Position numbers and translations under genes: made by a program. From IMG/VR virus record IMGVR_UViG_2636415959_000004: a DNA stretch of 11,870 nt; one strand, 5' to 3'. The notes beneath the pieces are model-generated. The model made no database searches. It was not told the origin of the DNA and was given only the letters and a program-made list of their open reading frames with translations. The stretch comes from a virus (lineage: Duplodnaviria; Heunggongvirae; Uroviricota; Caudoviricetes). Below are positions 7,773 to 11,870 of the stretch, one piece after another (the stretch's first letter is position 1; each line of letters starts with the position of its first letter).

Positions 7773-8128
7773 ATGAAGAAGAATACCCGCTTTGCTTTTA
7801 ACGCTTACCTGCAGCAGCTGGCGCGTCTGAACGGTGTGGCAGTTGAAGAACTGTCCAGCAAGTTCACCGTGGAGCCGTCTGTGCAGCAGACGCTGGAAGA
7901 CCAGATCCAGCAATCCGCCGCATTCCTGACGCTGATTAACGTCACGCCAGTGACTGAGCAGTCCGGTCAGTTGCTGGGGCTGGGTGTTGGCAGCACCATT
8001 GCCGGAACCACTGATACCACCGCAAAAGAGCGTGAGCCTGTCGATCCGACGCTGATGGTCGATGTGGAATATAAATGTGAGCAGACCAACTTTGACACGG
8101 TGCTGACCTACGCGAAGCTGGACCTGTG
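7773..8128 (+). pseudogene. Truncated 5' fragment of a P2-type major capsid gene (gpN family), about 118 codons
   Basis: First ~118 residues (MKKNTRFAFNAYL...FTVEPSV...YKCEQTNFD...LDL) align with the P2 gpN N-terminus as I remember it; similarity stops near 8128 and the frame then runs antisense to a minus-strand ORF. Orientation is opposite to the tail genes, so the fragment is inverted. GGAG lies 11 nt upstream of the ATG. Confidence 0.72.
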
Positions 8129-8151
8129 TACGAGATCCATTGCATCAGCCA

Positions 8152-8391
8152 TCAGTGGATCTCCTGCGCTTCGTTCTGGATTGCTTCAGCAGTCACACGC
8201 AGCAGTTCTGCCGCTTCGACGTGGTTTAGCTGGCGGGAGGTGATATGACACGCCAGGCTATCGAGGCGAGCAGCCATTGCTTCAGCCCTTGCCCGGCGTT
8301 CTTCCAGACGAGCCTCTGTCAGTAAAAGATTAAGACCTGCATCATCCGGTCCGGTTTTGGTCGTGAGGGTTTCAATATTACGCATAAGCAA
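8152..8391 (-). CDS. Hypothetical small early-region protein (79 aa)
   Basis: ATG at 8391 preceded by AGGAG about 7 nt upstream; charged, probably helical protein; no family recognised; its stop lies about 25 bp from the capsid-fragment junction. Confidence 0.45.
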   Translation of the reverse strand: MLMRNIETLTTKTGPDDAGLNLLLTEARLEERRARAEAMAARLDSLACHITSRQLNHVEAAELLRVTAEAIQNEAQEIH

Positions 8392-8965: not shown

Positions 8966-9475
8966 TCACAGCAAACCGAATGAAGCACCGAGGCCAGTCA
9001 CGGTATCAACTGCACTCGCCATCGCAGGATTAGCCTGTAAACGGGCCTGCAATGAAACAGCAGCCAGCGCCATCAGTCGTGTAACAGAGTTAATGCTGCT
9101 GATCGCATCACGACGGCCTGCACTGGTTTTTACATCGCCAGAAACCGCACCTGCCGCGACACGCCCTATCTCTGCAGTTGCACTCATGACGTAATGCGGC
9201 AGTTTCTCTTTTGCCACCTCATTAATCGGTACACATGGCAGGCAGTGAATCTGTGCCAGAAAGCCATCTACCAGCGTTGAATCTTCAGTCAGATCGGTAA
9301 GCAACCAGATTTCTGGTGCGGTTAATAAATGAGGTTGAGCTGGGTTCAGCTTGTTCCGCAGAATCTGCACATTCATGCCTGCACGTTCTGCCAGTTGCAC
9401 TAGGTTGTGGCGCAATGCGAATGCACGACAGGCTTCATCAAAATGTGGATGTTTGGAAACTTGGTAATCAAACAT
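8966..9475 (-). CDS. cII: Phage 186-type CII transcriptional activator (169 aa)
   Basis: From ATG 9475 the product starts [20 protein letters not shown]... and is 169 aa, matching the 186 CII (CP76) family in length and in sequence as I recall it; GAGG lies about 9 nt upstream; position right after the apl-like gene is as in 186. The tracked TTG start at 9481 adds two residues. Confidence 0.82.
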
Positions 9476-9507
9476 GGTCAATGCCTCTGATGTATTTCAG
9501 AATCGAA

Positions 9508-9729
9508 CTAATTAAGGTTTAGATTGCATTCTGAAAGCGCATCAACGGTCATGGCTGCTATGTTGATCATCACTTTTTCACGTTTTTTATCTTTGCGCAG
9601 ACGGTGACGGATAAGGCGTCCGTCAGCCAACATGTCATTGATGGTATCGATGGACAGCCCTGTCAGCTCGCTATAGCGTTCAATAGTCACATGAGGCGTG
9701 GTAAGAGTGATTGAAATGTTAGGTCTCAT
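9508..9729 (-). CDS. Putative Apl/Cox-type excisionase and switch regulator (73 aa, helix-turn-helix)
   Basis: Small ORF that is the first gene of the leftward operon, divergent from cI and upstream of cII (the position of 186 apl / P2 cox); HTH-like segment [25 protein letters not shown]; AGGAA about 9 nt upstream of the ATG. The assignment is mainly positional. Confidence 0.55.
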
Positions 9730-9854
9730 GATGCAACATTCCTCGTTTAATGATGATTAATCAGGACGAATACGGATCGTTTGTATTTTGTGAACACCAT
9801 AAACATACGATCGTACAGTGAAATCGTCAAGATAAAAGTTCACTTGGAGTGACC
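9730..9854. promoter_or_regulatory. Immunity switch region between the divergent apl-like and cI genes (expected lytic/lysogenic promoters and operators)
   Basis: 125-bp AT-rich intergenic region between divergent regulators; contains imperfect dyad symmetry around 9770-9815 (GATCG...GTATTTT...AAACATAC...CGATC) that could be repressor operators. No promoter hexamers assigned with confidence. Confidence 0.4.
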
Positions 9855-10424
9855 ATGAATTTGGAGAAAGGCGGACGAGGCGCTATAGAGCGCATGGTAG
9901 AAGCTTATGGATTCAAAACTCGACAGGCGTTGTGCGATCATTTAGGAATCTCTAAAAGTACACTCGCCACACGCTACATGCGTGACTCATTCCCAGCAGA
10001 ATGGGTAATCCAGTGCGCCCTTGAAACGGGCACCTCGCTTAATTGGCTCACAACCGGACATGGTTCAAAGCAAACTTCAGGTAATACAAATACTATGGAA
10101 GTTGCTAAATATGTATTATCTGATGGTGCCTTGCGTGAAGACGGTTTTTATATTTTTGATAAGGGATTTCTACCCTCTACGTTTAAAAAACCTTTTGTCA
10201 TCACAGATAACAATTCTGAATTTATTTGTGATAAAGAATTTGATGATATACGTGACGGTAAATGGGTAATAAGTATTGATGGCGAAATAACAATCCGCGA
10301 CATTACTCGTTTACCCGGTGGAAGAATCTTCGTTGAAGGTGGAAACAGAGCCTTCGAGTGCAAGATAGAAGATGTTGAAATAATTGGGAAAATTATAAGT
10401 TTAACAATTAAGTACGTTAGGTAA
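9855..10424 (+). CDS. cI: Phage 186-type CI repressor (189 aa from ATG 9855; tracked GTG at 9849)
   Basis: N-terminal domain (EAYGFKTRQALCDHLGISKSTLATRYMRDSFPAEW...CALETGTSLNWLTTG) matches the phage CI-repressor HTH family; length matches 186 CI (about 192 aa); GGAG 5 nt upstream of ATG 9855; divergent from apl/cII and upstream of int on the same strand. Confidence 0.82.
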   Translation: MNLEKGGRGAIERMVEAYGFKTRQALCDHLGISKSTLATRYMRDSFPAEWVIQCALETGTSLNWLTTGHGSKQTSGNTNTMEVAKYVLSDGALREDGFYIFDKGFLPSTFKKPFVITDNNSEFICDKEFDDIRDGKWVISIDGEITIRDITRLPGGRIFVEGGNRAFECKIEDVEIIGKIISLTIKYVR

Positions 10425-10439
10425 TACCGGGAGGAAACT

Positions 10440-10631
10440 ATGCTTGGTAAGGTATTTTTTGTGGTTTTATCATGCTCTTTGTTATTAAACCCACTAACTA
10501 CCTATGCTAAAAATTATCCTTGTTCTGGGAAAAAGGGAGGTGTCTCTCACTGTACCTCCGATGGAAAGTTCGTTTGCAATGATGGAACTATTAGTAAATC
10601 AAAAAAAATCTGTACTAAAAACTCGCGATAA
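10440..10631 (+). CDS. Small secreted cysteine-rich protein (63 aa; predicted signal peptide plus ~40-aa mature domain with 4 Cys), possible lysogenic-conversion cargo
   Basis: Strong SD GGGAGG (10429-10434) 5 nt before the ATG; hydrophobic N-terminus with a likely signal-peptidase site after TTYA; mature part is Lys/Gly/Ser-rich with 4 Cys; AT-rich; inserted between cI and int on the same strand. Confidence 0.5.
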
Positions 10632-10764
10632 ATTTTGCTTTTATATCTGCGCCTAATATAACAATGAGCCGCAGGCTAACCGCAAAAGTCACATACTCAC
10701 ATAGCAAAAAATAGCCAACTTCATTATGGCTTCAGTGAGATGTATGGTCGCAGGATTTCATACA

Positions 10765-10793
10765 TTGACACTGGTTATATATACAGTAAAAAT
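10765..10793 (+). promoter_or_regulatory. Candidate promoter upstream of int
   Basis: Perfect -35 TTGACA (10765-10770) followed at 16-17 nt by a weak A/T-rich -10 (TAAAAA / AAAAAT). Motif match only. Confidence 0.25.
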
Positions 10794-10817
10794 GCTCTCT
10801 ATTGGAGGGCATTTTTT

Positions 10818-11870
10818 ATGGCAGTACGAAAACTCACCACAGGAAAATGGCTTTGCGAATGTTACCCCGCCGGACGTAGTGGGCGTCGTGTGCGTAAACA
10901 ATTCGCCACCAAAGGCGAAGCTCTGGCTTTTGAGCGCCATACGATGGAAGAAACCGAAGCAAAGCCCTGGCTGGGAGAATCAGTGGATCGTCGAACACTG
11001 AAAGACGTGGTTGAGCTATGGTTCAAACTACATGGTAAATCTCTAACCGCTGGGCAGCATGTCTATGATAAATTGCTGTTGATGGTTGACGCTCTGGGCA
11101 ATCCCCTTGCAACCGATCTCACCTCTAAAATGTTTGCCCACTATCGAGATAAACGCCTGACAGGTGAGATCTACTTCAGCGAGAAATGGAAGAAAGGAGC
11201 AAGCCCGGTCACCATTAACCTGGAGCAAAGCTATCTAAGTAGTGTTTTTAGCGAACTATCCCGCCTGGGCGAATGGTCGTATCCAAACCCACTGGAGAAC
11301 ATGCGAAAATTCACCATCGCAGAAAAAGAGATGGCATGGCTTACCCATGAGCAGATTGTTGAACTGCTGGCTGATTGCAAACGTCAGGACCCAATTCTGG
11401 CACTGGTAGTCAAGATATGCTTAAGCACAGGCGCACGCTGGCGAGAAGCAATAAACCTTACCCGATCACAGGTGACTAAATACCGAATTACCTTTGTAAG
11501 AACGAAGGGGAAGAAAAACAGAAGCATCCCTATCAGTAAAGAGCTTTATGAAGAGATCATGGCGCTTGATGGGTTCAATTTCTTCACAGACTGCTATTTT
11601 CAATTTTTATCCGTGATGGAAAAAACGTCAATCGTGCTCCCTCGCGGTCAACTGACACACGTTCTGCGCCATACGTTTGCGGCGCATTTCATGATGTCGG
11701 GTGGAAATATCCTTGCTTTGCAAAAAATCCTCGGACATCACGATATAAAAATGACTATGCGTTACGCTCATCTGGCACCGGATCATCTGGAAACGGCGCT
11801 CCGTTTCAATCCTCTGGCAACGCTGCCAAGTGGCGACAAAGTGGCGGCAGCGGTTGGCATTACCCCGTAA
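10818..11870 (+). CDS. int: Tyrosine recombinase, P2/186-type phage integrase (350 aa from ATG 10818)
   Basis: Resembles P2 Int as I recall it; catalytic signatures HxxR (LRHTFAAHF) and C-terminal tyrosine (MTMRYAHLAP); GGAGGG about 8 nt upstream of ATG 10818, so the tracked start at 10740 is a spurious 5' extension; the stop codon is the last 3 bases of the window. Confidence 0.9.
   Translation: MAVRKLTTGKWLCECYPAGRSGRRVRKQFATKGEALAFERHTMEETEAKPWLGESVDRRTLKDVVELWFKLHGKSLTAGQHVYDKLLLMVDALGNPLATDLTSKMFAHYRDKRLTGEIYFSEKWKKGASPVTINLEQSYLSSVFSELSRLGEWSYPNPLENMRKFTIAEKEMAWLTHEQIVELLADCKRQDPILALVVKICLSTGARWREAINLTRSQVTKYRITFVRTKGKKNRSIPISKELYEEIMALDGFNFFTDCYFQFLSVMEKTSIVLPRGQLTHVLRHTFAAHFMMSGGNILALQKILGHHDIKMTMRYAHLAPDHLETALRFNPLATLPSGDKVAAAVGITP

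Follow-up and report, generated by a model that had tools for sequence, protein, structure and literature searches.

The window analyzed in this study, a stretch of 11,870 nucleotides (nt) from a virus of the class Caudoviricetes (IMG/VR record IMGVR_UViG_2636415959_000004), carries a short open reading frame (ORF) between the repressor gene cI and the integrase gene int of a 186-like prophage. Judged by its sequence, this ORF (10440..10631, plus strand) is almost certainly a phage-borne member of the YdcA family and a paralogue of ydcA of Escherichia coli K-12, and the explanation that we favor as a whole, though tentatively, is that of a periplasmic polyanion-binding YdcA module made from the repressor operon. 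The first-pass annotation had singled out the ORF without recognizing its family. However, the encoded protein of 63 amino acids (aa) is identical to the RefSeq entry WP_001321204.1, to which some records give the name 'YdcA family protein' and others 'hypothetical protein'. It scores 116.1 bits against the NCBIfam model NF007463 (PRK10040), for which the cut-off is 93, and matches phrog_6000 at 4.6e-34, while PF27300 'YdcA' is precomputed on the 97%-identical representative of its database cluster. The protein is 57% identical to the 57-aa YdcA of E. coli K-12 (b1419), its 90% cluster holds 355 member sequences and its exact sequence occurs on at least 1000 contigs. The family is thus already catalogued and annotated, and since the gene stands in RefSeq and in about 12% of complete E. 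coli genomes, we do not present it as a new element. The only local Pfam-A match, to GULLO2-like, was sub-threshold (E = 0.068, in a copy of Pfam-A that predates PF27300) and was rejected; the match to lpg1681_fam was weak (E = 0.11), and a Foldseek search of BFVD gave nothing significant.

The ydcA gene and its predicted product

The ATG of the ydcA gene lies 15 nt past the end of cI (stop codon at 10422-10424) and is preceded on the plus strand by the Shine-Dalgarno sequence GGGAGG (10429-10434) with the 5-nt spacer AAACT, so that the ORF and the ribosome-binding site noted in the first-pass annotation are both present. The first 23 codons (10440..10508) are predicted to encode a Sec signal peptide, which had also been proposed. 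A heuristic check found a basic n-region (MLGK), a hydrophobic core with a maximum Kyte-Doolittle value of 2.77 over 11 residues, and a c-region (NPLTTYA) with Ala at -1, which places the predicted signal peptidase I cut after TYA. This residue, Ala23, is invariant in the 28 homologues of alignment A1 and present in 74 of 80 diverse representatives, and the precursor would accordingly leave through Sec and be cut behind it. A fifth cysteine, C21, lies inside the signal peptide and is not conserved. A lipoprotein was considered too, as the allele in the window agrees with the loose form of the PROSITE lipobox (VVLSC), although not with the strict one; the cysteine is not conserved in homologues, and this reading was rejected as a family feature.

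The predicted mature peptide (10509..10628) is a basic YdcA domain of 40 aa and 4.27 kDa with an isoelectric point of 9.6, in which nine Lys and Arg residues stand against two Asp and Glu. Its delimitation draws on conservation, on an AlphaFold2 model with a pLDDT of 87-92 over the core, and on a remote match to a lobe of Dis2, which is described below. The four cysteines reported in the first-pass annotation are a family feature, as alignments of 28 and of 80 sequences showed C28, C38 and C46 to be invariant and the conservation of C58 to be at least 90%. Furthermore, every position of the family motif PCSGxKGG(V/I)SHC ... F(V/I)CxDG(S/T)xSxSKKxC is present in the window protein. Taking together sequence, family conservation and the structure of Dis2, the mature peptide would be a small periplasmic beta-hairpin domain with two disulfides.

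The gene is very short and the window prophage is itself a rearranged remnant, and one could argue on these grounds that the frame arose by chance or is a decaying passenger without function. The pattern of substitution speaks against it: over 29 core codons compared with eight homologues, nonsynonymous divergence (pN) was 0.03-0.15 while synonymous divergence (pS) was saturated at 0.81-0.93, and it is this contrast that makes the ORF more than chance. The part encoding the signal peptide evolves fast (pN 0.42). In addition, a profile search of 1.84 billion representatives recovered 465 YdcA-family clusters, curated hidden Markov models match the protein, and 631 of 5426 complete E. coli genomes contain the module at 10425-10760, which E. 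coli ATCC 8739 carries in identical form. The chance origin is therefore effectively refuted by the conservation pattern. One strain that carries the module is named 'E. coli C' and is a cow's-milk isolate; it was not used for any argument on the P2 or 186 sensitivity of the laboratory strain.

Probable relationship of YdcA to Dis2

Dis2 (Lpg0823; lobes in 7MUD), a subunit of Legionella's Dot/Icm apparatus, a type IV secretion system (T4SS), is the only sequence in the PDB matched by the YdcA profile (E between 1.3e-4 and 2.5e-4). The mature part alone aligned with Dis2 in hhalign at 93% probability, Dis2 was also the top Foldseek match (probability 0.80), and one Dis2 homologue carries PF27300. 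Combined together, these matches make the YdcA domain appear related to Dis2, which was described without structural relatives (PMC8486379) and, in its published descriptions, without obvious homologues outside Legionellales. In the cryo-electron microscopy map Dis2 lies near the outer membrane and is built of two similar lobes pinned by five disulfides (PMC8486379), and it is because of this structure that we predict disulfides and an envelope location for YdcA.

The same cysteines could also be read as metal ligands, in which case the four of them, together with the conserved His37, would coordinate zinc or copper instead of forming disulfides. The nearly invariant His beside Cys38 fits such a peptide, as do the copper-associated neighbors (DUF2946, PepSY_TM) of a few homologues. 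However, the periplasm of E. coli is oxidizing, His37 is replaced in some members and the spacing of the cysteines is unlike any known zinc knuckle. The apparently homologous lobes of Dis2 moreover show disulfides with strong density (PMC8486379), and we regard metal binding as very improbable.

The variable slot between cI and int

As the first-pass annotation stated, the gene directly follows a 186-type cI gene and precedes int. The repressor gene occupies 9855..10424 on the plus strand when the RefSeq start is taken (an in-frame GTG lies at 9849) and matches Phage_CI_repr at 2.8e-33 and Phage_CI_C at 2e-28 in Pfam; its counterpart in a complete prophage is annotated as phage repressor protein CI. 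The integrase gene (10818..11870, plus strand) encodes a tyrosine integrase of the P2/186 family (Int_N, 3e-32; Phage_integrase, 7e-22). On the minus strand an Apl/Cox-like excisionase-repressor gene (9508..9729, phrog_575 at 6e-31) diverges from cI, and beyond it lies a gene for a lysogeny-establishment activator of the CII (CP76) type (8966..9481, Pfam Phage_CP76 at 3.4e-42).

The first-pass annotation had also called the ORF a horizontally acquired 'moron', and the comparison of related phages bears this out. In phage 186, cI abuts int with no gene between them, and prophages with a 93-100% identical integrase have other genes in this place. Phages whose int is 95-97% identical are likewise without ydcA. 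Klebsiella phage 4LV2017, the int of which has 97% DNA identity to that of the window, and Escherichia phage vB_EcoM-813R9 have only int and about 60 nt upstream of it in common with the window and carry other genes after cI. We surveyed the slot in 80 viral contigs with close relatives of this CI, of which 71 had stored DNA that reached int or carried the cargo. Of these 71, 62 had cI, ydcA and int in succession, the gap being about 396 nt, five more surveyed contigs had ydcA followed by a gene for a KAP NTPase of 443-446 aa, and nine had no ydcA and 1.2-2.7 kb of other genes instead. The alternative cargo comprised PD-Lambda-1, PDC-S20/KAP NTPase, PDC-M11A and a HEPN-like gene, which match defence systems either known or proposed as candidates, and others. 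These results support the view that ydcA is accessory cargo in a variable cI-int slot of a 186-like prophage. In one viral contig, L115 (4216-5622), an insertion sequence with an rve-family transposase on the opposite strand has removed the 5' half of ydcA, leaving its last 29 codons, and in the cargo variant of L158 (4121-5044) a second CI-like gene of 307 aa, in which Phage_CI_repr matches two stretches, lies between cI and int together with a KAP NTPase gene behind it.

The cargo does not extend as far as the first-pass annotation had placed it. Its interval of 10425-10817 holds the cargo, but the last ~78 nt (about 10740-10817) are common to all cargo variants and hence form a conserved int leader, which marks the right edge of the slot. 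On the other hand, an alignment of the regions upstream of int showed that the 3' spacer at 10632..10739 (plus strand) travels with ydcA and is absent from the other cargo variants. The argument from base composition likewise held in part. The region is AT-rich as claimed (GC 0.34-0.37 over 10200-10800 against 0.54-0.58 in the tail genes), but the low-GC tract starts near 10050, within cI. The deviant composition is not confined to the insert, and because the tract takes in half of cI it is by itself no mark of a foreign ORF.

We also looked at whether related prophages of other hosts have a gene at this position, as the first-pass annotation had suggested. Prophages of Yersinia, Buttiauxella, Haemophilus (HP2 and S2) and other Pasteurellaceae have ydcA after cI, followed by int or by further genes before int, although their CI proteins are only 31-38% and their integrases 41-49% identical to those of the window. 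In HP2 and S2 the gene is an unannotated ORF of 60 codons whose ATG overlaps the cI stop codon (2407-2589 in the HP2 record; 2920-3102 in L001). The product of the next gene in HP2, orf1(S), is secreted and shows similarity to the tRNA_anti-like OB fold (2.8e-13). The two alleles in E. coli, of the window type and of the P0010 type, differ at nearly all synonymous sites of the core and at only one of its 29 residues. Since alleles that are near-saturated at synonymous sites remain one residue apart, the association of ydcA with cI is either old or has been re-established under selection.

Predicted expression of ydcA and the int leader

A promoter scan found no convincing promoter upstream of ydcA. 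Since the gene has no recognizable promoter of its own, has a strong ribosome-binding site 15 nt after cI, and is followed by a hairpin and U-run before int, its message is most likely a bicistronic cI-ydcA transcript of the lysogen that largely ends before int; we consider this layout probable, though by no means certain. Transcription from pL, as put forward in the first-pass annotation, is what the position of the gene suggests. A bicistronic transcript of this kind would mean that the YdcA protein is made continuously in the lysogen.

The putative terminator (10794..10817, plus strand) consists of a hairpin at 10794-10811, with an RNA folding z of -3.1, and a T-run that ends at the ATG of int. 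The hairpin begins 162 nt past the ydcA stop (10632-10793) and belongs to the shared int leader and not to the cargo. Its stem occurs as GCUCUC/GGAGGGC, GCCCUC/GAGGGC, GUCCUC/GAGGAC and in Yersinia forms, and all variants fold alike, with compensatory changes. As the Shine-Dalgarno sequence of int sits in the 3' arm, the hairpin likely serves both as terminator of the cI-cargo transcript and as occluder of int translation. Just upstream of it we noticed a promoter-like site, TTGACA-17-AAAAAT (10765..10793, plus strand), with 10 of 12 matches in the promoter scan, and overlapping this site a LexA-box-like palindrome, CACTGGTTATATATACAGTA (10769-10788), which agrees with the LexA consensus at 17 of 20 positions (3 mismatches) and for which no chance match was expected in 200 shuffles. 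Both are kept in all cargo variants and in the Yersinia prophages. This suggests that int expression is SOS-controlled, and int may have a separate, possibly SOS-controlled start.

Distribution of the YdcA domain

Most of the 465 clusters recovered by the profile search encode proteins of 55-110 aa, some repeat the domain two or three times in tandem (P0080-P0084), and several are fusions. Across Alpha-, Beta- and Gammaproteobacteria, identity within the mature domain is 45-80%. In the fusions a signal peptide and the YdcA domain lie N-terminal to Endonuclease_NS (8e-33), SNase (5e-24) or PLD-type PLDc_2 (5e-19) as matched in Pfam. The fusion to Endonuclease_NS is no artefact, as PF27300 and PF01223 were found together in all 120 of the best 120 among 744 relatives, which came largely from Methylococcales and metagenomes.

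Other homologues stand in different surroundings. In Kluyvera and Pectobacterium (L039 1092-7152; L055 2935-5719) a YdcA paralogue lies within a type VI secretion system (T6SS) cluster with the order tssB, tssC, tssE, a 156-aa ORF, the ydcA-like gene, a gene for a T5orf172/MUG113 protein, tssA and VasL, and about ten other loci of Enterobacterales have a similar spacing. Siphophages of Moraxella and Acinetobacter carry YdcA homologues too, as morons of their tail modules, and 58 plasmid records hold homologues, for which no link to conjugation genes was apparent in the match list (the flanks were not looked at); the label 'Conjugal transfer protein' occurs in UniRef. A survey of 150 flanking ORFs at 76 species-representative loci found no single conserved partner gene; the commonest neighbors were cytochrome b561, TssE-like proteins, CI and integrase, with 3-5 of the 150 ORFs apiece. 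Some homologues of 100-160 aa from Betaproteobacteria (P0056, P0126, P0228) have a second, Cys-rich motif at the C-terminus, CxCxxxxxCxGPRGGxFC...GxKSY. The C-terminal extension of homologues of 105-150 aa gave a weak match to the PBCV basic adaptor (PBCV_basic_adap) at E = 0.006, which was below threshold.

Possible function of YdcA

We propose that YdcA would be made with the repressor in the lysogen and exported to the periplasm, where it would adopt a two-disulfide fold. There the domain would bind a phosphate-rich polyanion, most likely nucleic acid, and could act on DNA that enters the envelope during phage infection, transformation or conjugation, and in this way protect the resident prophage. 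Such binding is suggested by the recurrence of the same signal-peptide and YdcA module at the head of three unrelated families of secreted nucleases. It is supported further by the strongly basic character of the free-standing phage and chromosomal YdcA proteins, by the invariant residues, which form a Gly/Lys-rich loop, and by the secreted OB-fold-like protein encoded next to ydcA in HP2. The proposal is also supported by the location of the gene in a defence hotspot and by the precedent of Glo, a protein of Vibrio cholerae phage K139 to which we return below. Periplasmic DNases encoded by mobile genetic elements have been reported to block transformation (PMC12378983). That binding of polyanions or DNA by YdcA leads to exclusion is nevertheless doubtful in our estimate, for several observations weigh against it.

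A literature search on YdcA proteins found no experiment on nucleic-acid binding or phage exclusion, and in PADLOC neither the window protein nor the HP2 homologue nor K-12 YdcA had a match at E <= 1. The DNA of tailed phages enters inside a tail-derived channel, so that a binder free in the periplasm may never come into contact with it. Compared with the free-standing proteins, the domains in the nuclease fusions are much less basic, which shows that charge is no constant of the family, and the fusions themselves could equally reflect anchoring at the envelope. For the window prophage both the transcript and the protein are predictions. Dis2 and the paralogues in T6SS clusters, finally, point to a role in protein-protein contacts or close to the outer membrane.

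This last point can be extended to a different explanation of the whole family, in which YdcA would be a disulfide-stapled protein-protein or membrane-proximal module that docks on machines spanning the envelope or on the outer membrane from its inner side. In the prophage, the protein would then alter envelope properties, such as stress tolerance or the way in which secretion machines or phage tails assemble or penetrate, and would not bind nucleic acid, and in the fusions the module would only retain the nuclease at the envelope. Such an adaptor, though rather unlikely when taken by itself, is almost as likely as polyanion binding. The only apparent relative with a solved structure, Dis2, is a subunit of the Dot/Icm outer-membrane cap near the outer membrane, and YdcA paralogues occur inside T6SS clusters. 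For ydcA or b1419 itself our literature search found no functional study and only indirect phenotypes, which also fit an envelope role: loss of ydcA makes E. coli W sensitive to an organic acid, 3-hydroxypropionate, and ydcA has been reported to be acid-induced via YdcI (PMC7642389). On the other hand, deletion of Dis2 leaves the T4SS machine intact and Dis2 is dispensable for its structure and function, so that it says little about the activity of the domain (PMC12716638). Dis2 is also not basic and has two lobes, the window contains no T4SS genes and there is no T6SS gene near the ORF, and a shared substrate would be the simpler reason for the recurrent fusion to three nuclease folds.

Going beyond the window gene, polyanion binding by YdcA could be taken as a property of the family as a whole. 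YdcA miniproteins would then form a widespread, so far unrecognized class of periplasmic nucleic-acid-binding proteins that intercept incoming DNA, expressed by several lineages of temperate phages (186-like, HP2-like, and Moraxella and Acinetobacter siphophages) from the repressor operon or as morons of the tail module. We consider this generalization unlikely; if true, it would explain what Dis2, an orphan subunit of the T4SS, and E. coli YdcA do. The connection of phage cargo with secreted nucleases and with Dis2 makes an uncharacterized family testable, because the 40-residue mature peptide can be synthesized and tests on it would inform on E. coli YdcA, Dis2 and the phage copies together. 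It is also of interest that the linkage to the repressor is stable in P2-like prophages across Enterobacterales and Pasteurellaceae while the slot churns through defence genes.

The remnant prophage in the window

The gene for the small RNA RybB lies at 2700-2778 (Rfam, 105 bits). Because the prophage sits between rybB/ybjL and, in complete versions, rcdA (ybjK), the rybB region appears to be its attachment site. Between 4744 and 8243 the window prophage is a rearranged remnant, in which a 975-aa 'tape measure' ORF starts with a C-terminal fragment of the head-completion protein gpL and an N-terminal fragment of the P2-type capsid gene is inverted at 7773-8243; it lacks the lysis genes and most of the tail genes. 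The junction of this remnant was not found in one piece among the 5426 complete E. coli genomes.

Comparison with known systems

The closest relatives of the window protein are YdcA of K-12 and its family, with which it has the domain, the size, the signal peptide and the Cys/Gly/Lys motif in common. However, K-12 ydcA is chromosomal and lies between rydC and hokB, with cybB also near, whereas the window copy is prophage cargo behind cI. With the YdcA-domain nucleases the window protein shares the signal peptide and YdcA module and all four cysteines, and it differs from them in having no catalytic domain; the fused domains are also less basic. Dis2 resembles it in being secreted and Cys-rich, with the lobe motif CS-K-GG-I--C...VCN-G--S, but Dis2 is a stoichiometric part of the T4SS with two lobes and five disulfides and is not basic, while the window protein has one lobe, which is basic, stands free and contains four cysteines.

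Defence hotspots of P2-like prophages have already been described, including the cI-int hotspot of K139-like Vibrio phages (PMC9122126; PMC13586616). The slot of the window prophage is of the same kind, in that sister prophages hold PD-Lambda-1, KAP NTPase (PDC-S20) or PDC-M11A where the window has ydcA; unlike such swapped cargo, ydcA remains linked to cI across distant hosts. Together with the place of the gene in the lysogeny module, these hotspots would fit classical superinfection exclusion, which the first-pass annotation had listed among its candidates beside receptor masking and host interaction and in which the peptide, like Glo of K139 or Spackle of T4, would bind a part of the phage that is entering (its tail-tip lysozyme or its tape measure) or a partner of entry in the inner membrane and so block entry of the genome. 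We think this improbable. A domain that is so well conserved across three proteobacterial classes, and that is also found in chromosomal genes, in nucleases and in secretion clusters, is a poor fit to a phage-specific target, and there is neither a PADLOC match nor homology to Glo.

Glo provides the precedent for the position of ydcA. Its gene lies between cI and int in the lysogenic operon of a phage related to P2, and it is a soluble periplasmic protein that is annotated and cited as involved in phage exclusion. The window gene shares the place between repressor and integrase, a likeness that follows from position alone. Glo has 137 aa and no four-Cys motif, and a BLASTP comparison with the window protein (E = 0.11, 7/30 identities) gave no detectable homology. 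Thus Glo is the best positional, and possibly also the best functional, analogue of the window gene, an analogue of place and not of family.

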